Shown here: positions 5,167 to 21,446 of the stretch, piece after piece
Layout: every line of letters starts with the position of its first letter
Numbering within the stretch: position 1 is the stretch's first letter
Assembly: GCA_016744535.1 (NCBI GenBank)
Contig: JADGEE010000006.1
Location: 78 to 64,077 of the forward strand
Reading direction: 5' to 3'
Source of the DNA: Campylobacteraceae bacterium
GTDB lineage: Bacteria; Campylobacterota; Campylobacteria; Campylobacterales; BB28
Length of the DNA stretch: 64,000 bases
The notes under the pieces: generated by a model
Told to the model about the DNA's origin: nothing
Seen by the model: the letters and a program-made list of their open reading frames with translations, nothing else
Databases searched by the model: none
Translations under genes and position numbers: made by a program

Positions 5167-5940
5167 TCAATCCATTATCTTTACAACTTTTGCCAAATAC
5201 TCGTGCCATTCTACATCCTTTGAGTGTGCTATATCAATTGTTTTTAAATATTTAATAATAAATATTTTAGTAGACATTTCGTCATTATTACTATTGCTCA
5301 TTTTAGATTTTTTAAAAAATTCAATTATTGCTTGACTCTTTTTTGCTTCAGCCCATAAAAGTTTATCAAAATAGTAAGTTTTTGTATTAATTATTTTTCT
5401 TAATTCTTCAGAATAATAACTACTGTTTTTTGTAAAATTTCTTAAAAACTCTGTCTTAATGTACTCTTGTAATTCTTCTAACTCTCCTGCTCTTGGAGCT
5501 CTTGGCTTTGAATTATTTTTGTTTTCTTCTTTAGTTAATTCAAAAAAAATACCCTCTATACTTCCAGTGGATTTCATAAATTTATGTTTATAAACCCCCT
5601 CCTCATCTTTAGTTTTAATAAGAAATTTTTTATAAAGTTCATTTAAATAAATTATATCTTTATAAAATTTAATAATTAAACTATCAATAATATGAGGATC
5701 AGTTGATTTAATAGTATTTAAAGCAGAAGCTACAAATCGATTTAACTTCATAAAATTTATTTCTGTTTGATATTTAAAGTTATTGTTTTCTAAAAAATTT
5801 ACATTAAACCTTACCACTTCATACTCATCACTAAAATAATCATCTATAAAATTATCAATCATAGATTCAATTAAAGATTTATAGTAAGTCTCTTCGCCAC
5901 CTTCAGATTCATAAACAGTACTCTCTTCATTATCAGACAT
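5167..5940 (-). CDS. hypothetical protein (acidic N-terminus), first gene of the CNB-kinase operon
   Basis: 257-aa ORF, 3 nt upstream of the CNB gene on the same strand. No motif recognised. Confidence 0.6.
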   Translation of the reverse strand: MSDNEESTVYESEGGEETYYKSLIESMIDNFIDDYFSDEYEVVRFNVNFLENNNFKYQTEINFMKLNRFVASALNTIKSTDPHIIDSLIIKFYKDIIYLNELYKKFLIKTKDEEGVYKHKFMKSTGSIEGIFFELTKEENKNNSKPRAPRAGELEELQEYIKTEFLRNFTKNSSYYSEELRKIINTKTYYFDKLLWAEAKKSQAIIEFFKKSKMSNSNNDEMSTKIFIIKYLKTIDIAHSKDVEWHEYLAKVVKIMD

Positions 5941-9234: not shown

Positions 9235-10060
9235 AAATATCTTTAGCTTTTAAAATATCTTTTTTTATCTCTTCTTTTAACTCTTTAATTGAGTTAAATT
9301 TTTGATTTTCCCTAATAAAATCTAAAAATGTAATTTCAACTTCACCCTCATTAAATTCAATATCCTCATCAATTAAATGTGTTTCAACTGCAAAAGAGTT
9401 ATCTGTTGTAACTCTATGACCCATAAAAGTTACAGAGTTATAGAGAGTTTTATCTATTAATGTTTTAGTGGCATATATTCCACTTTTTGGAATTAAAAAC
9501 TTTTCAATTTTTAAATTGATTGTAGGAACTAACTCTCTTTTACCAATTCCTTGACCATTAACTCTAAGACCTATAATTTTATAATTTCTATTTAAAAGTC
9601 TATTTGCTAATTTTATATCACCATTTGATAATATTTGTCTAATTGTTGAAGAGTGAATAGATATATTGTCAATTTTTACTTCACTTACAACTTCAACAAC
9701 TCCATTAAACATTCTCTTTAAATCATTTACATTATGATGTCTATTTTTTCCAAAACCAAAGTCATAACCAACTACAATTTTTTTTAAATTTATAAAATCA
9801 CTTTTTAATTTGTTTATAAATTTATCCCCACTTAAGCCCTTTATATCACTTAAATCATAAGAGAAACAAGCTTTATCTATAACACTACATCTGTACTCAT
9901 TTGGAGTTAAGTTTCCACGATTATGCTCAATAAATAATACAGCCCCATTTTCACTTAATTGTCCAATTAATCTCTGATGGGCTAAGTGCATTCCATCAAA
10001 ACTTCCAATTGCTAACTCTTCTATGTTCTCTTTTTTTAAAGAAGAAAAACTTTTTAACAT
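9200..10060 (-). CDS. ribF: bifunctional riboflavin kinase / FAD synthetase
   Basis: 286 aa. GSFDGMHLAHQ N-terminal nucleotidyltransferase motif and C-terminal riboflavin kinase region (GIYA, THLID). Confidence 0.85.
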   Translation of the reverse strand: MLKSFSSLKKENIEELAIGSFDGMHLAHQRLIGQLSENGAVLFIEHNRGNLTPNEYRCSVIDKACFSYDLSDIKGLSGDKFINKLKSDFINLKKIVVGYDFGFGKNRHHNVNDLKRMFNGVVEVVSEVKIDNISIHSSTIRQILSNGDIKLANRLLNRNYKIIGLRVNGQGIGKRELVPTINLKIEKFLIPKSGIYATKTLIDKTLYNSVTFMGHRVTTDNSFAVETHLIDEDIEFNEGEVEITFLDFIRENQKFNSIKELKEEIKKDILKAKDIFKISLNESSPL

Positions 10061-12273: not shown

Positions 12274-12810
12274 ATGAGACTGATATTTCTTATATTTGTT
12301 ATTTTAATTTTTAGTGGATGTGAAAAAAAAGAGGATATAAATCAAAATATTGTTTCAACAACTACAAAAAGTTCTAACTTATCATTAAAAGATGTTTTTG
12401 GCAAAAATTATGAATTTGAAAAAAAAGGCAATGGTTTTAATTTTGGAAAACTTAGTGGAAAAGTTGTATTGCTTGATTTTTTTGCAACTTGGTGTCCACC
12501 TTGTAAAGCAGAGATTCCTCACTTAATCAATATTCAAAAAGAGTATGGAGATAAGTTTGAGATTGTTGGAGTTTTAATGGAAGAAGATAAACCAGTTAAT
12601 GAGATAAAAGAGTTTATTGATGAATATAAAATTAACTATATAGTGCTAAATTCTGGTGATATTTCAAAATTAGTTAAATCTGTTGGTGGAGTTCGTTCAA
12701 TTCCATTTATGATAATGTATGATGAAAAGGGGGAATATTTCACTCACTACATCGGTGCAGTTCCTGAAGAGATGATAGTATCTGATATTAAAAGGGCGAT
12801 TAAAGAATGA
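12274..12810 (+). CDS. TlpA/ResA-like thiol:disulfide oxidoreductase lipoprotein
   Basis: 178 aa. Lipobox IFSGC and thioredoxin motif WCPPC. Confidence 0.85.
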
Positions 12811-13676
12811 TAGGATTTTTTAAAAAAGGTCTTAAAAAAACAATTGAAGCAATTAAGGAAGTTGTACCTACTAGACAAGAGAAGATAAGCAGAGATATTT
12901 TAGAGGAGATTTTACTTGAAGCTGATGTTGAATATGATTTAATTGAAGATATTTTAGAAAGACTTCCAAAAGATATAACGAGAGAAAAGCTTGAAATAGA
13001 ACTTTTAGAACTCTTTAGTGAAAGCGAAACAGAGTTAAATGACAAACCAATAGTTGAGTTAATTATCGGTGTAAATGGTGCTGGAAAAACTACAACTATT
13101 GCAAAATTAGCAAACAGTTATAAAAAAGATGGTAAAAAAGTTTTACTTGGTGCTGGAGATACTTTTAGGGCAGCAGCAATTGAACAACTCTCAAAGTGGG
13201 CAGATAAAATTGATGTTCCAATTATTTTTACAAAACAGGGTCACGACCCTTCAGCTGTAGTTTATGACACTATTCTTTCAGGAATTTCAAGAGGAAGTGA
13301 TAGAGTTTTAATCGATACAGCAGGAAGACTTCACAATCAAACAAATTTAGCAAATGAATTAAAAAAGATTGTAAGAGTAGCACAAAAAGCAAAACCAGAA
13401 GCCCCTCACAGAAAAATTTTAATTCTTGATGGAACACAAGGAAATTCAGCCATAAATCAAGCAAAAGTATTTAATGAGATGATAGGAATAGATGGAATAA
13501 TTATTACAAAGCTTGACGGAACTGCAAAAGGTGGAGCAGTTTTTTCAATTGCAAAGAGTCTTGGTATTCCTATTTTATATATCGGAGTTGGCGAAAAACA
13601 AGATGATTTAATTAAATTTAATAAAGATGAGTTTGTAAAATCTTTACTTGATGAGATATATGAAGAGAAAAAATAA
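12807..13676 (+). CDS. ftsY: signal recognition particle receptor FtsY
   Basis: 289 aa. [28 protein letters not shown]-GTPase motifs. Confidence 0.95.
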
Positions 13677-13697
13677 TAAAGTGGAGTTTTAAATATA

Positions 13698-16600
13698 TTG
13701 ACAAAAGAGAATATAAATAAATTATTACAAAAATTAAATTTTAAAAAGAGTGAAAAAAATTTTATTTATACTAAAAAATATAATAATAAAATTTTAGAGA
13801 TAGATACTAAAAATGAAAATATAAAATATAGTGAATTTGGAATTAAAGTAGGTGATAAAACTACTTCAAACTTTTCAAGTGATGAAAATTTTGTTGTTTT
13901 AGAGTGTGTAGATAAGTTATTAACTAAAGGTTACCAATCAAATCATATTGAACTTGAACCTAGATGGAAATTAGGACATACAGGCAAAAGTGGCAAAGCT
14001 GATATTTTAGTAAGAGATATGGAAAATCGACCACTTTTAATAATCGAGTGCAAAACTTACGGTAAAGAGTTTGATTCTGAAATTAAACAGATGAGAGATG
14101 ATGGTGGACAACTATTTTCATATTTTGCACAAGAGAGGGCTACTAAATATTTATGTCTCTATGCTTCAAGATTAAATAAAAACAGTATAGAGTATCAAAA
14201 TAGAATTATAAAAACTTCAAAAGAGTATGAAGAGGCAAAAAACAGTATTGAACTTTTTAATATTTGGGCAAATCAATTTGCTCTATCTTTTAATGATAAT
14301 GGTATTTTTGATGATGATATTCAAGCTTATAATATTGAACTTCGTGCAAAAAAGAGAAAAGATTTAAAACCACTTCCAAAAGAGAATAAAATTTATAATC
14401 AATTTATGGAAATTTTACGACACCATAATATTTCAGATAAAGAGAAAGCTTTTAATAAAATTATATCCCTATTTTTATGTAAAATCGCAGATGAGACAAA
14501 AATGGAGAATGAAGAGTTAGCATTTCAATATAAAAATGGTATTGATGATGTTTATAGTATGCAAGATAAACTCTTAAATCTTTTTCACATAGGTATGAGA
14601 GACTATTTAAAACAGAATATTACTTATATTAAAGAGAGTGAGATAGAAGAGGATTTTAAACACTACACAATAAAAGTAGCATTACAAGAAGTATTAAAAA
14701 AGTTTAGAGAAATAAAATATCACTCAAATAATGAATTTACTTTTATAGATGTTCATAATCAAGAACTATTTTTTGAGAATGCAAAAGTCCTTAAAGAGGT
14801 AATTGAACTATTTCAAGATTATCAATTTAGTTACACTCATAAAGAGCAAATTTTAGGAAACTTTTTTGAAAATATGTTATCAAAAGGTTTTAAACAGAGT
14901 GAAGGACAATTTTTTACTCCTGTGCCTATTGCAAAATTTATAATAATGTCAATTCCCATAAAAGAGTTGATTTTAGAGAGACAAAAAAAGAGTGAAACTC
15001 ATATTTTACCTTATGTAATGGATTACGCTTGTGGTTCAGCCCATTTTTTAACAGAAATTATTGACGAGATTTCATATATATCAAAAGAGATAAATTTAGA
15101 AGAATATAAAAATGATACGACTTGGGTAAAAGAGCATATTTTTGGAATAGAGAAAGATTATAGACTTAGTCGTACTGCCAAAGTTGCTTGTTTTTTAAAT
15201 GGTGCAGGTGAGACAAATATTATTTATGGAGATGGTTTAAAAGATTATGATGGTATCCAAAAAAATAAATTTGATATAATTATTGCAAATCCTCCATATA
15301 GTGTAAAAGATTTTAAAAACTTTTCAAAACTTAAAAGTAATGATTATAGCTTGTTTGATAATCTTACAAATAGTTCAAGTGAAATTGAAGTTCTATTTAT
15401 TGAGCGAACAGCACAACTGCTTAAAGTTGGTGGATATGCTGGAATAATCCTTCCATCTTCTATTTTAAGTAATAGTGGAATTTATAGTAAAGCTAGGAGA
15501 TTATTAGTTGAAAATTTTTATATAAAATCTATTGTAGAGTTTGGAAGTAATACTTTTGGTGCAACCACAATAAGAACAGTAACTCTATTTTTACAAAAAA
15601 GAGATATTACAGAGAGTGCAAAACTTACATATCAAAATATTTCATTAGATAAAGAAAATGATAAATATAGTAATGATAATTATTTAGAATTATATTGTAA
15701 AAAGTTAGAGATAAATTATGAAGATTATCAAAATTTTTTAAATAGTAATTTAAATCAAAAGTTAAAAGAGAGTGAGTTTTATAAAGATTATCAAAAATGG
15801 TTTGATAATTTAACATCTATAAAAGAGATTAAAAAGAAAAAATATTTTAAAGAGTTAAGTGAAGTCAAAAAATTAAAAAAATTAAAAAAAGAGTTTTTTA
15901 TAAAAGTACTTGAAAATGAAAAGAAAAAATTTAAATATTTTTCATTATGTTTAAATCAAAAAACAACTATTATAAAAACTGGTGAAAAACAATCTGAAAA
16001 GGATTTCTTAGGTTATGAGTGGAGTAATAGAAAAGGTAGTGAGGGTATAAAAATTTATCAAGAGAGTCAATTATTTGATGAGATAGATAAAGATAGTTTA
16101 CAAAAAGCAAACACTTATATTAAAAAAGCTTTTTTAAAAGATGATATAGAGATTGACAATAGTTTAAAAGAGAATGTTTTTAATTATAATTTAATTGATA
16201 TGATTGATTTTAAAAAGATAGATTTTGAAGTTTCTATTAATTTAAATAAAAAGAAAAAAATTAATTTTAACAAAATTTGGAATACAAATAAACTAATATT
16301 ATTATATAAAATATCTGAAATAAAAAAAGGTTCATCAATAACAAAAAAAGATGTTATAGATGGAAATATACCAGTTATCGCAGGTGGTAAAAAGTTAGCA
16401 TATTATCATAATCAATCAAATAGAAAAGGTAATGTTATTACAGTAAGTGCTTCTGGGGCAAATGCAGGATATGTAAATTATTTTATAAATGAAATATTTG
16501 CTTCTGATTGTACTACTATTCAAGCAAAAAATGAATATTTAACAAAATATATTTTTATTTGCTTAGAAATTATACAAAATGAAATTTATAAATTACAACG

Positions 16601-16823
16601 AGGACAAGCACAACCTCATGTATATCCAAAAGATTTAGAAAATTTGCCAATTCCATTATTAAAAAAAACTATTCAACAACAAGTAGTTGATGAGATAGAA
16701 TATATTGATAAAAATGGTATTAATTTTTCAACATCTGATATTTTAAAATATCAAAAAGAATTAAAAAAAGAAAAAAGTAATATTTTATATAAATATTTAA
16801 AAGAGAAAAAAGAAAATAAATGA
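13698..16823 (+). CDS. fused restriction endonuclease-like / N6-adenine DNA methyltransferase / single TRD protein (type IIG-like R-M-S)
   Basis: 1041 aa with a TTG start and GGAG 11 nt upstream. HsdR-N/PD-(D/E)xK-like KADILVRD...LLIIECK (nt 14001-14054). MTase motif I VMDYACGSAHFL (15015-15050). Motif IV NPPY (15288-15299). C-terminal HsdS-type target recognition domain (approx 16299-16697). Confidence 0.8.
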   Translation: MTKENINKLLQKLNFKKSEKNFIYTKKYNNKILEIDTKNENIKYSEFGIKVGDKTTSNFSSDENFVVLECVDKLLTKGYQSNHIELEPRWKLGHTGKSGKADILVRDMENRPLLIIECKTYGKEFDSEIKQMRDDGGQLFSYFAQERATKYLCLYASRLNKNSIEYQNRIIKTSKEYEEAKNSIELFNIWANQFALSFNDNGIFDDDIQAYNIELRAKKRKDLKPLPKENKIYNQFMEILRHHNISDKEKAFNKIISLFLCKIADETKMENEELAFQYKNGIDDVYSMQDKLLNLFHIGMRDYLKQNITYIKESEIEEDFKHYTIKVALQEVLKKFREIKYHSNNEFTFIDVHNQELFFENAKVLKEVIELFQDYQFSYTHKEQILGNFFENMLSKGFKQSEGQFFTPVPIAKFIIMSIPIKELILERQKKSETHILPYVMDYACGSAHFLTEIIDEISYISKEINLEEYKNDTTWVKEHIFGIEKDYRLSRTAKVACFLNGAGETNIIYGDGLKDYDGIQKNKFDIIIANPPYSVKDFKNFSKLKSNDYSLFDNLTNSSSEIEVLFIERTAQLLKVGGYAGIILPSSILSNSGIYSKARRLLVENFYIKSIVEFGSNTFGATTIRTVTLFLQKRDITESAKLTYQNISLDKENDKYSNDNYLELYCKKLEINYEDYQNFLNSNLNQKLKESEFYKDYQKWFDNLTSIKEIKKKKYFKELSEVKKLKKLKKEFFIKVLENEKKKFKYFSLCLNQKTTIIKTGEKQSEKDFLGYEWSNRKGSEGIKIYQESQLFDEIDKDSLQKANTYIKKAFLKDDIEIDNSLKENVFNYNLIDMIDFKKIDFEVSINLNKKKKINFNKIWNTNKLILLYKISEIKKGSSITKKDVIDGNIPVIAGGKKLAYYHNQSNRKGNVITVSASGANAGYVNYFINEIFASDCTTIQAKNEYLTKYIFICLEIIQNEIYKLQRGQAQPHVYPKDLENLPIPLLKKTIQQQVVDEIEYIDKNGINFSTSDILKYQKELKKEKSNILYKYLKEKKENK

Positions 16824-16868
16824 ATTCAAACAATAAAAAATTAGTAAAGGTTTTATTAAAATATAATT

Positions 16869-18203
16869 ATGGCAAAAAACAAAATTAAAAAAACTTATGA
16901 GTGTCAATCTTGTGGATTTAATTCTCCTAAATGGCTTGGAAAATGTCCTAATTGTGGAAGTTGGGATAGCTTTTTAGAGTTAAACTTAAATGATAAAGTC
17001 CAAATTAAGACATCAAACTCTAAAAAAGCTAAACCAATTACAGAAGTAGAAGAAGATAACTTTGTTAAATTTTCAACTTTTAATGAAGAGTTTGATTTAG
17101 TCCTAGGTGGTGGAATAGTCCCTGGGAGTTTAACACTAATTGGTGGAAGCCCAGGGGTTGGAAAATCAACATTGCTACTAAAAATTGCAGGAAATTTAGC
17201 TCAAAACTCAAAGAGAGTTTTATATGTTAGCGGTGAGGAATCAATTGGTCAAATTAAAATTCGTGCTAATAGACTTGAAGCGATTAGTGAAAAGCTATTT
17301 TTACTCTCTGAAATTAATTTAGAAAATGTAATAAGTGAGTTTAAATCTGATAAATTTGAAATTTTAATTATTGATTCTATTCAAACTCTCTACTCTGATA
17401 AAATTACTTCAGCTCCAGGAAGTGTCTCACAAGTTAGAGAGATTACTTTTGATTTAATGAGATTAGCCAAAGATAATAGTGTAGCTGTTTTTATTATTGG
17501 TCATATCACAAAAGAGGGTTCAATCGCAGGACCTAGAGTATTAGAGCATATGGTCGATACTGTTTTATATTTTGAGGGTGATAGCTCACGAGAACTTAGA
17601 ATGCTTAGAGGATTTAAAAATAGATTTGGCTCAACTAGTGAGATTGGAATATTTGAGATGACAAAAGATGGATTAGTTAGTGCAAAAGATATTTCAAGTA
17701 AATTCTTTAGCAAAACTAATCCTCAAGCTGGTTCTGCCCTAAGTGTTATTATGGAGGGAACTCGTGCTATTGTGATAGAAGTTCAAGCATTGGTGGCTGA
17801 TAGTGCTTATGGAAATCCTAAAAGAAGTACAACAGGATATGACTCAAATAGATTAAATATGCTTTTAGCCTTGCTTGAGAAAAAGTTAGATTTACCGTTT
17901 AATCAATATGATGTCTTTATAAATATCGCAGGTGGTATAAAAATAATCGAAACAGCTGCCGATTTAGCAGTAATTGCTGCTATACTTTCAAGCTTTAGAA
18001 ATAAAACTTTAAGTAGAGATATTGTATTTATTGGAGAAGTTAGTTTAATTGGCGATATTAGAGATGTATATAATATTGATTTAAGACTTAGAGAAGCTAA
18101 AAATTTAGGTTTTACTAAAGCGATAGTAGCAAAAAAACCAAAAGAGATTGATTTAAAATTTTATGAAGTTGATGAAGTTTCTAAAATTATAGATTGGATG
18201 TAA
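16869..18203 (+). CDS. radA: DNA repair protein RadA
   Basis: 444 aa. N-terminal zinc ribbon CQSCG...CPNCG, Walker A GGSPGVGKST, KNRFG motif, Lon-like C-terminal domain. Confidence 0.95.
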   Translation: MAKNKIKKTYECQSCGFNSPKWLGKCPNCGSWDSFLELNLNDKVQIKTSNSKKAKPITEVEEDNFVKFSTFNEEFDLVLGGGIVPGSLTLIGGSPGVGKSTLLLKIAGNLAQNSKRVLYVSGEESIGQIKIRANRLEAISEKLFLLSEINLENVISEFKSDKFEILIIDSIQTLYSDKITSAPGSVSQVREITFDLMRLAKDNSVAVFIIGHITKEGSIAGPRVLEHMVDTVLYFEGDSSRELRMLRGFKNRFGSTSEIGIFEMTKDGLVSAKDISSKFFSKTNPQAGSALSVIMEGTRAIVIEVQALVADSAYGNPKRSTTGYDSNRLNMLLALLEKKLDLPFNQYDVFINIAGGIKIIETAADLAVIAAILSSFRNKTLSRDIVFIGEVSLIGDIRDVYNIDLRLREAKNLGFTKAIVAKKPKEIDLKFYEVDEVSKIIDWM

Positions 18204-18237: not shown

Positions 18238-18510
18238 ATGAGTACTTGCATTAAAGCTTACCACAGACAAGAAGAGAGATATTGTGGATTAAATTTAGAG
18301 TTTACAAACTCTAGTGACAAAGAGGAAATTTTAAAAAATATAAATGAGTTAAAGAGTGAATTAAGTTTAAGCCCTGATGTATTTGATAATAATAAGCCTG
18401 ATGGAAGTGGTGGAGTATATATTGAATTTTTAGATGATTATGATAAAGAATCTGGTATATTTTTTGAAGCAATAATAAAGAGACTTGGTATAAAAGAGTG
18501 TGAAGTTTAG
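18238..18510 (+). CDS. hypothetical small protein
   Basis: 90-aa ORF with a GGA-rich RBS region upstream. No motif recognised. Confidence 0.5.
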   Translation: MSTCIKAYHRQEERYCGLNLEFTNSSDKEEILKNINELKSELSLSPDVFDNNKPDGSGGVYIEFLDDYDKESGIFFEAIIKRLGIKECEV

Positions 18511-20553: not shown

Positions 20554-20873
20554 TTAGTTTTCATAAAGTTTTACTCCCTCATTCTCTACTTTATAAATTA
20601 AAGATGAAACTTCATTCACTTTATTATCAAATTCACTAACTGTATATACTATTAAATCTTTTGTGCTACTCCTAAACCTCTTAGTGCTTTATATCCTATT
20701 CTAGGTCTTTTATAAAATTTCTCATTTGATTCTTCTACCACAATTATTAAATCTAAATCACTATCTTCATTAGGTTCACCCCAAGCATAAGAGCCAAATA
20801 GATAAATTTTTTTAGGTAAATAAGCCTCTATTAATTTATCTTTTATTAAATTTATAGTTTGTTGATTAATCAT
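20554..20873 (-). pseudogene. MNT-type nucleotidyltransferase (antitoxin-like), interrupted by a 1-nt frameshift
   Basis: The 73-aa ORF has GSYAWGEPNEDSDLDL. The expected C-terminus DLIVYTVSEFDNKVNEVSSLIYKVENEGVKLYEN continues in another frame to a stop at 20554-20556. The frames rejoin if the A4 run (T4 on the + strand, 20659-20662) were A5. Confidence 0.7.
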
Positions 20874-20893
20874 TTTTTACTCCAAAAAATAGC

Positions 20894-21226
20894 TTAAAAA
20901 ATTGATTTTAAGATTAATTTATCTATCTCTTTTTCATCAATATTCTCTAAATCGCTTTTATCATAAATATAAATCAGATGTAATTCATCATCTAAAATTT
21001 TCAAATAACTAATTAATCTATAACCTGAACTTTTACCTTTTTGCTTATCACTATTTGCAATTCTAACTTTAAATAAATTAGCTTTTAATTCAATCCCTAA
21101 ATCTTTTTTAGATGTAATAGAATCAAAAAAGTTATCTAAATCTCTATCAATACTTTTATATCTCTTTAGCAATTTTCTAAAAGCTTTTTTAAAACTCTCT
21201 TGTTTTATTATCTCTAATTTATTCAT
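20894..21226 (-). CDS. RelE/ParE-superfamily-like toxin (GKSxGYR type)
   Basis: 110 aa. KGKSSGYRLISY...LIYIYDKSDLENIDEKEI resembles the GKSGGYR...K.E..NI pattern of RelE-like (DUF1044-type) toxins. Confidence 0.55.
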   Translation of the reverse strand: MNKLEIIKQESFKKAFRKLLKRYKSIDRDLDNFFDSITSKKDLGIELKANLFKVRIANSDKQKGKSSGYRLISYLKILDDELHLIYIYDKSDLENIDEKEIDKLILKSIF

Positions 21227-21446
21227 TTTCTAATGTTATATACTTTCCTGTATGTTCGCCTTTTTGAGTGTTTATATCTTCCCAAACTCCTTTTAAATCA
21301 TCCTCAATCTCTTTTAATTTTAACTCTTTTCTTTTCATTTCAATAAAGCCTCTAATAGCCTCTTTTACAACTTTTGTATTATCATCTAATTTTATAAAGT
21401 TTTTTAACTCTAAAAGTAAAGTATCTTCTATACTTAGTGTTGTCAT
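21219..21446 (-). CDS. putative antitoxin partner
   Basis: 75-aa ORF overlapping the toxin start by 8 nt on the same strand. No motif recognised; the call is by position only. Confidence 0.4.
   Translation of the reverse strand: MTTLSIEDTLLLELKNFIKLDDNTKVVKEAIRGFIEMKRKELKLKEIEDDLKGVWEDINTQKGEHTGKYITLENE

Follow-up and report, generated by a model that had tools for sequence, protein, structure and literature searches.

A single-chain restriction–modification enzyme with one target recognition domain, probably a self-contained type IIB/IIG homodimer, encoded between ftsY and radA in an uncultured member of Campylobacterota

HaeIV of Haemophilus aegyptius is a restriction–modification (RM) enzyme denoted '2R~gammaM~[GAY]', in which one chain carries one target recognition domain (TRD); it is described as a homodimer that recognises the symmetric sequence GAY N5 RTC and cuts on both sides of it (Loenen et al., PMC3874165; PMC4081073). 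AloI, PpiI and TstI are denoted 'R~gammaM~[TRD]~[TRD]' and display a puzzling stoichiometry of one RM portion to two TRDs (PMC3874165, PMC4081073). BsaXI is assembled as (RM)2S (PMC11997821), and its RM subunit combined with half of the S subunit (TRD1-CR1 or TRD1-CR2, where CR denotes a conserved region) cleaves a new symmetric site, AC N5 GT (Gidwani et al., PMC9159934). Furthermore, half-size S subunits (EcoR124I-NT; M.DrdI-type 2M+2S) have been described in which a single TRD with one conserved helix region dimerises and reads a symmetric bipartite sequence (PMC3874165; PMC2877798). Here, we describe a gene for a single-chain RM enzyme with one TRD, located between ftsY and radA in a 64,000-nucleotide stretch of DNA (hereafter, the window) from an uncultured Campylobacteraceae bacterium (GenBank assembly GCA_016744535.1, contig JADGEE010000006.1, positions 78 to 64,077).

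The encoded protein is a type IIG (type IIC) enzyme, in which an N-terminal nuclease and a gamma-class N6-adenine methyltransferase (MTase) are joined in one chain. These domains are followed by a specificity module like that of type I HsdS, namely a TRD of the Methylase_S fold and then a conserved helical region. We propose, with a probability of roughly 0.7, that the protein is a self-contained type IIB/IIG (type IIC) RM enzyme of the AloI/CjeI/BsaXI-RM lineage, which would form a homodimer on a symmetric bipartite site and cut the DNA on both sides of that site. The gene and its parts are as follows (window coordinates; aa, amino acids).

13698..16823 (+): complete gene of the single-chain R-M-S enzyme, 1041 aa, TTG start and TGA stop (open reading frame (ORF) list and PADLOC)
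13698..14282 (+): N-terminal PD-(D/E)xK nuclease domain, aa ~1-195; its motif aligns with the nuclease motif of RM.BsaXI, and the AlphaFold2 (AF2) predicted local distance difference test score (pLDDT) is >90
14001-14003 (+): catalytic D102 of the nuclease
14046-14048 (+): catalytic E117 of the nuclease
14052-14054 (+): catalytic K119 of the nuclease
14283..14843 (+): helical connector from nuclease to MTase, aa ~196-382; predicted all-helical at 231-372 (AF2), corresponding to BsaXI connector residues 193-348
14844..15605 (+): gamma-class N6-adenine MTase core, aa 383-636 (Pfam), with Foldseek matches to type I HsdM and BsaXI
15021-15035 (+): MTase motif I, D442..G446 (D442-x-x-x-G446)
15288-15299 (+): MTase motif IV, NPPY531-534
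15606..15977 (+): Lys-rich multi-helical 'knob' in the MTase fold, predicted helices at aa ~637-751 and then the last MTase beta-strand at aa 755-760 (AF2)
15978..16292 (+): TRD-tethering linker, aa ~761-865 (~100 aa), well conserved, with alignment columns G772, Y773 and G783 and predicted secondary structure (AF2)
16293..16658 (+): single HsdS-type TRD, aa ~866-987 (Pfam Methylase_S, one stretch)
16659..16820 (+): CR, predicted helices at aa 990-1005 and 1012-1040 (AF2), ending in ...NILYKYL; the presumed dimerisation element

In its layout, the protein most resembles HaeIV, since a single polypeptide comprises nuclease, gamma-class MTase and one specificity domain, without an accompanying M or S gene; this likeness is one of described architecture, and the host phylum differs. 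The protein shares with AloI, PpiI, TstI and CjeI (~1250 aa) an R-M core to which an HsdS-type S module is fused C-terminally, and it is 41-50% identical to two-TRD proteins of ~1250 aa. However, the module of those enzymes is TRD1-CR1-TRD2-CR2 (1 RM : 2 TRD) and their bipartite sites are asymmetric, whereas the window protein has TRD-CR only (1 RM : 1 TRD) and is ~200 aa shorter. With BsaXI (8w0p/8w2p/8w2q) it has in common the nuclease motif, the connector, the MTase and the knob. BsaXI differs in having a separate two-TRD S subunit and a C-terminal 'paddle', whereas the TRD of the window protein is part of the same chain, and AF2 predicts no long paddle hairpin between its MTase and TRD. 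The BsaXI half-S (TRD1-CR1) is an engineered analogue of the one-TRD dimer that we propose. The BcgI/BsaXI type is marked by a separate S gene adjoining the RM gene; here, the neighbouring genes are ftsY and radA.

Pfam domains in the protein were ordered as HSDR_N_2, N6_Mtase, Eco57I and a single Methylase_S. N6_Mtase was matched at aa 383-723 (E = 4e-32) and Eco57I with E = 6e-17. The HSDR_N_2 match at aa 76-131 was weak (20.8 bits against a cut-off of 25), and relatives exceeded the cut-off for the same domain. An initial interpretation of this DNA, made from its letters and ORFs (the sequence-only reading), had named both an HsdR-N-like N-terminal domain and a gamma-class N6-adenine MTase with an NPPY motif, and these assignments agree with the domain matches. 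When the 120 best homologues were aligned, D102, E117, C118, K119, Q404-F-F-T-P408, D442, G446 and N531-P-P-Y534 were invariant in all of them (120/120), from which we conclude that both catalytic centres are intact; E117 and K119, the residues previously put forward for mutation of the nuclease, had been numbered correctly. The protein also matched the PADLOC profile PDLC03624 (REase_MTase_IIG) over residues 1-1026 (E = 1.6e-271, 902 bits), consistent with the earlier description of a nuclease-MTase-TRD single chain of the type IIG/IIB kind. Only positions 2-1062 of the 1271 in this profile were covered, indicating that a typical family member has ~200 more C-terminal residues.

The AF2 model, which was built on 65 sequences, had a pLDDT of 85.8 and a predicted template modelling score (pTM) of 0.73. 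Its best match in the PDB was RM.BsaXI (8w0p; Foldseek, E = 1.2e-29), followed by the fused M~TRD MTase of V. vulnificus (7eew) and the type IIG enzyme BpuSI (3s1s; E = 1.3e-17), and RM.BsaXI (8w0p) was also the best phmmer match among solved structures (E = 2e-31). In BsaXI, as resolved by cryo-EM, the knob comprises residues 626-742 and separates strands 7 and 8 of the MTase fold (PMC11997821); aa 640-731 of our protein aligned with residues 630-724 of BsaXI in this region. The Lys-rich helical spacer of the sequence-only reading is indeed present, and it can be refined to a BsaXI-type knob (aa ~637-751) plus a linker of ~100 aa. By homology to BsaXI and to the AloI-type enzymes, the protein may be of type IIB. 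In contrast to type ISP and type I enzymes, no helicase or translocase ATPase domain (ResIII, DEAD, SNF2) was matched in the protein by Pfam.

Methylase_S (PF01420) was matched once, at aa 872-1007 (51.2 bits against a cut-off of 22, E = 2e-13), and the TRD and CR together aligned with TRD1 and CR1 of the M. genitalium HsdS (1ydx, E = 7e-7). A genuine type I HsdS, encoded in a type I hsdM-hsdS operon on an E. coli IncY plasmid (L046:4941-6071, on the P1-like IncY phage-plasmid NZ_CP020936.1), has an N-terminal TRD that shares 46% identity with the TRD of our protein (E = 1e-39). The same segment (window 16293-16658) is 44-45% identical to HsdS proteins of Vibrio plasmids. In addition, this TRD type ('SASGANAG...FASDC...QPHVY') is the first TRD of many two-TRD relatives; it is ~70% identical to TRD1 of the homologue P0009, although the whole proteins are only 49% identical. 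Judged by these identities, this TRD type is shared across RM types and phyla. The PDB and plasmid HsdS matches carry no specificity information, and no recognition half-site was obtained from them. The combination of a single TRD and a CR is also that of half-size HsdS subunits and 'type 1 1/2' MTases. In those systems, however, the S subunit (and M and R) is separate and the type I versions use ATP-driven translocation, whereas the window protein is one chain with a putative PD-(D/E)xK nuclease of the fixed-distance kind and without a helicase/ATPase domain.

The protein belongs to a clade of one-TRD forms (P0001-P0005 and P0007), the other members of which are 60-65% identical to it and all have one TRD. 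Members of this clade share the CR pattern ...EIEYI-x-NGI-x-F-[S/P]-TSDI-x-KYQ...ILxxYL, yet they carry at least four unrelated TRDs. The CR has thus been kept while the TRDs were swapped, a hallmark of a functional, diversifying specificity module. The C-terminal tail of our protein aligned with the extreme C-terminus (the end of CR2) of P0006 and P0009, which both have two TRDs. Retention of the CR, as seen in these alignments, indirectly supports a homodimer on a symmetric site.

For the CR of this clade, the prediction (of modest confidence; pLDDT 59-83 in our protein) is a helix of 16 aa, a loop with the conserved NGIxF[S/P]TSD and a helix of 29 aa, in place of the usual one long helix. 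Such a helix–loop–helix could form an intramolecular hairpin that needs no partner. In that case, the protein would be a monomeric type IIG enzyme, the single TRD and MTase of which would read a short contiguous asymmetric site, methylate one strand and make one-sided cuts, as MmeI and BpuSI do. RdeGBIII would be a further parallel: the S domain of this RMS type IIB enzyme is similar to BpuSI and MmeI (PMC11997821), which we count in favour of this explanation. The presence of one TRD per chain and of BpuSI (3s1s, E = 1.3e-17) among the structural matches would also fit a monomer. However, the TRD belongs with those of type I HsdS and not with those of MmeI and BpuSI; TRDs of the HsdS kind read half-sites of 3-5 bp and work in pairs, and the same TRD type fills the TRD1 slot of two-TRD relatives. 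Moreover, a full-length CR with the HsdS-type terminal motif has been kept and is conserved, and a companion methylase, which many hemimethylating type IIG enzymes require, is absent from the window. We consider a monomer of this kind unlikely. The sequence-only reading had left a choice between dimerisation on a symmetric bipartite site and a short asymmetric site; because HaeIV has been described as a one-TRD homodimer on a symmetric site, this choice appears, by analogy, to be largely answered by the literature in favour of the dimer.

The predicted hairpin itself might have one of two consequences, to which we attach a slim chance. It might be an in-chain coiled coil, giving a monomeric type IIG enzyme that is based on an HsdS-type TRD and reads a very short asymmetric site, or it might contribute to a four-helix-bundle dimer with a new spacing of the half-sites. 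If either were true, natural siblings with one and two TRDs would offer a direct handle on the 1 RM : 2 TRD puzzle of the AloI/CjeI-type enzymes.

We further analyzed how one-TRD and two-TRD forms are distributed across the family, for which more than 8000 homologues were found. The lengths of the 120 best matches were bimodal (29 at 950-1125 aa and 91 at 1200-1325 aa), and Pfam recorded one Methylase_S stretch in short forms and two in long forms (two in P0006, P0009 and P0102). The C-terminal extension comprises 182 aa in our protein, compared with ~340-370 aa in two-TRD forms. These stretch counts, together with the partial coverage of the PADLOC profile, confirm the previous statement that the protein has one HsdS-type TRD where AloI-type relatives have two. 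Because the list of matches to the full query was biased by its TRD, the search was rerun with the first 860 residues only. This TRD-free query was compared with 1.84 billion cluster representatives, and the tails of the 103 representatives whose match reached the end of the RM core were classified by size: one TRD in 18 (17%), two TRDs in 77 (75%) and no tail in 5 (5%), the last being RM-only proteins similar to BsaXI and BcgI. In a neighbour-joining tree of the TRD-free part, one-TRD forms appeared in at least 10 separate places among the two-TRD forms. One-TRD forms are polyphyletic and recurrent, and constitute a common variant. Their rarity had previously been overestimated, as they make up ~1 in 6 family clusters and have a known prototype in HaeIV.

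In three pairs (P0101/P0102, P0106/P0092 and P0110/P0078), the one-TRD member is nearly identical to its two-TRD sibling through CR1 and stops where TRD2 should begin; P0110 has a garbled, nonsense-like tail. This pattern suggests that P0101, P0106 and P0110 are recent truncation or frameshift variants, possibly reflecting on/off or specificity switching. The window protein is not a truncation of this kind, in that it ends with the family C-terminal motif ...NILYKYL. An origin of the one-TRD form by a single 'hybrid CR1/CR2 deletion' was also considered and was rejected: the tail of our protein is CR2-like, whereas certain other one-TRD forms have simply been truncated after CR1, and therefore the one-TRD forms have no single origin.

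Truncated forms in other clades, as well as the TTG start codon, would be compatible with a decayed or silent remnant, that is, a two-TRD enzyme from which TRD2 has disappeared, leaving a protein that is inactive, methylase-only or, with a TTG start and lacking its own promoter, poorly expressed. However, the protein ends with the normal motif of the family, and its clade relatives, only 60-65% identical, are still full-length, with all catalytic residues in place, the CR conserved and the TRDs diversified. The gene is free of internal stops and frameshifts, and its lone A8 run corresponds to the background frequency (29 such runs in the 64-kb window). The gene also contains no G/C runs of ≥6, as in phase-variation tracts. 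A remnant is in our view very unlikely.

In the homodimer that we propose, two chains would pair via their CR helices, as half-size HsdS subunits do, to give (R~M~TRD)2, which would restore the stoichiometry of 1 RM : 1 TRD found in the (RM)2S assemblies of BcgI and BsaXI. The dimer would read a symmetric bipartite site consisting of a half-site, about 5-7 unspecified bp and the inverted half-site, and would methylate one adenine per half-site, on opposite strands, thereby protecting host DNA. Since both halves would be methylated, no separate methylase would be needed. Unmethylated DNA would be cut to either side of the site, at a fixed distance from it, and double-strand cuts would probably need further enzyme molecules or a second site, as for other type IIB enzymes. 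Horizontal transfer would have brought the gene, as a unit of one gene, to its place between ftsY and radA, with which it would probably be co-transcribed. Its immediate flanks are as follows (nt, nucleotides).

12807..13676 (+): ftsY, left flank, 289 aa, SRP54-type GTPase (Pfam SRP54, E = 2.5e-73)
13677..13697 (+): spacer between ftsY and the RM gene, 21 nt, with GGAG at 13683-13686, 11 nt 5' of the TTG (read directly)
16824..16868 (+): spacer between the RM gene and radA, 45 nt (read directly), in which no remnant of a second TRD was found
16869..18203 (+): radA/sms, right flank, 444 aa (Pfam Zn_ribbon_LapB, KaiC-type (KaiC/RecA) ATPase and ChlI/Lon-C)

The length of 1041 aa, the TTG start and the distances of 21 nt after ftsY and 45 nt before radA given by the sequence-only reading were exact when compared with the ORF list and the sequence. 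The TTG start is credible because GGAG lies 11 nt upstream and the N-terminus of the protein aligns with homologues from residue 1. According to the ORF list, the gene contains no other ORF of ≥80 aa in any frame. A terminator scan found no terminator-like site between ftsY, the RM gene and radA, and it is therefore likely that the three genes are co-transcribed. A promoter scan gave 56 sites where 42.8±7.7 were expected and was uninformative in this DNA of 27% GC content; Rfam gave no match over the whole window. The order ftsY-RM-radA was identical in an ENA scaffold of 116 kb (ERZ28566751, BORC21-1_SAMN14087007_METAG scaffold_29) and a Logan contig of 8.4 kb, which were assembled independently from the same sample, and both contained an identical protein (P0001); a chimeric assembly is therefore unlikely.

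The order trx-ftsY-radA is conserved in Campylobacterota. We compared 30 ftsY loci of this phylum and found radA within 7 kb after ftsY in 17 of them, with a gap of 10-96 nt in 7, of ~230-260 nt in 2 and of 0.7-4.2 kb, occupied by other genes, in 8. The intervening genes, where checked, were of non-defence type (a short-chain dehydrogenase, an M48 peptidase, a CHASE2 cyclase and an acyltransferase), and tblastn detected no homologue of the RM gene in the 17 ftsY-radA loci. The flanking genes themselves are conserved: the window radA is 61-69% identical to the radA that follows ftsY in relatives, and the window FtsY is 81% identical to that of a metagenome-assembled genome (MAG) from a sulfidic cave and 61-68% identical to those of Sulfurimonadaceae, Sulfurovum, Sulfurospirillum and Nitratiruptor MAGs. 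One-TRD homologues occupy other contexts. P0002 (62% identical) lies between sdhA and sdhB, P0003 adjoins an AAA-ATPase/PDDEXK_9 gene, P0004 starts 6 nt after an ABC-transporter gene, P0061 is near VapE-like primase genes, and P0034 lies between genes for a CbiA/ArsA-type ATPase and a pyridoxamine-phosphate oxidase. Because the 17 ftsY-radA loci lack the RM gene and close homologues are found in unrelated contexts, comparison of these loci supports an insertion of the RM gene between ftsY and radA. No mobility gene was found near the RM gene in the window. The earlier proposal of an insertion without a mobility gene is thus upheld by the synteny comparison; relatives do not carry the gene at this position, and its catalytic residues are intact.

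At the locus of P0002 (L003:5198-9420; JGI 3300026512 Ga0256842_1000316), the RM gene is flanked by a direct repeat of 131 nt with 97% identity (5810-5940 and 9271-9401). The repeat is a duplicated 3' end of the neighbouring gene, and a downstream ORF of 77 aa repeats the last ~45 aa of the upstream ORF of 249 aa. An 'insertion with long target duplication' is a mode described for RM genes by Furuta, Abe and Kobayashi (PMC2853133), and the L003 gene is a textbook example of it. An ORF of ~250 aa without a Pfam family adjoins the RM gene of two 62% identical homologues, upstream at L003:5198-5947 and downstream at L005:8926-9678. The two copies are 56% identical to each other, have the motif GE[VT]DF...FFIQEFK and match PADLOC PD_DExK (E~1e-9). 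This PD-(D/E)xK ORF was rejected as an obligatory partner, since neither the window nor the P0004, P0061 and P0034 loci contain it; it might be a favoured target or accompany the RM gene on occasion.

A partner might also be encoded elsewhere. If the chain paired via its CR with some other half-S or one-TRD protein, the enzyme would have a bipartite specificity that is asymmetric. Such pairing would be conceivable in that orphan TRD genes are common (>36 orphan homologues of BsaXI TRD2; PMC9159934) and the part of the genome examined here is 64 kb, but neither a Methylase_S gene nor any other M or S gene was found in the window (~5.9-63 kb) or beside the five one-TRD homologues examined. Moreover, if the partner lacked RM domains, one of the half-sites would be served by neither methylase nor nuclease. 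We rate this explanation as the least probable of those considered.

Several points weigh against the proposal of an inserted, homodimeric enzyme. Dimerisation, the symmetry of the site and cleavage on both sides are argued by analogy, and the CR of the clade, as modelled, might pair within its own chain and not with that of a second molecule. With respect to the insertion, the GC content of the RM gene (0.234, compared with 0.28-0.31 for its neighbours) is weak evidence of a foreign origin, and a search for direct or inverted repeats flanking the window gene returned only AT-rich chance matches. No empty-site allele from a near relative documents the insertion in this lineage. Furthermore, the nearest relative by ftsY (81%, L009) has lost the ftsY-radA linkage; because its ftsY is not followed by radA, the 3' junction of ftsY is variable in this lineage.

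At the latter locus (L009:7873-10972, MAG DZAZ01000012.1), ftsY is followed by minus-strand genes, including those for an AAA_15/AAA_21 ATPase and a Gp49-like protein (defence-like or toxin–antitoxin (TA)-like). The label Helicobacter cetorum of DZAZ01000012.1 appears doubtful for a sulfidic-cave sample. In the window, an ORF of 90 aa without a Pfam family directly follows radA (18238-18510, +), and it is conserved (35-42% identity) after or near radA in several Campylobacterota relatives. A TA-like cluster lies just beyond rnr (20652-21446, -), consisting of a nucleotidyltransferase of 73 aa (NTP_transf_2/Polbeta), a RelE-like protein of 110 aa (20894-21226) and an ORF of 75 aa. An ORF of 1664 aa (54209-59203, +) has faint Pfam matches to TSP3/beta-propeller and C-type lectin families and probably encodes a large protein that is secreted or located on the cell surface. 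Chemotaxis, Mla, MutS2, outer-membrane and central-metabolism genes make up the remainder of the window.

The enzyme belongs to a well-known kind of phage defence, and its one-TRD layout has a characterised prototype in HaeIV and an engineered analogue in the BsaXI half-S. Solitary RM genes inserted in conserved gene pairs without mobility genes are likewise a documented pattern, and current understanding is unchanged by this finding. The only mildly unusual feature is the predicted helix–loop–helix CR specific to the clade. For annotation and for the discovery of restriction enzymes, the gene adds a member from an uncultured campylobacterotal bacterium of a sulfur environment, probably with a new specificity, to the single-chain type IIB/IIG enzymes. 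It illustrates the exchange of TRDs, in that one TRD type occurs in two-TRD relatives and, at 46% identity, in a type I HsdS of E. coli; it also illustrates repeated switching between one and two TRDs and the entry of a bare RM gene into a conserved pair of housekeeping genes. If expressed, the enzyme would set the N6-methyladenine pattern of its host and act as a barrier to phage and DNA uptake. The helix–loop–helix CR, together with natural sibling pairs having one and two TRDs, could serve to address the stoichiometry of single-chain type IIB enzymes.

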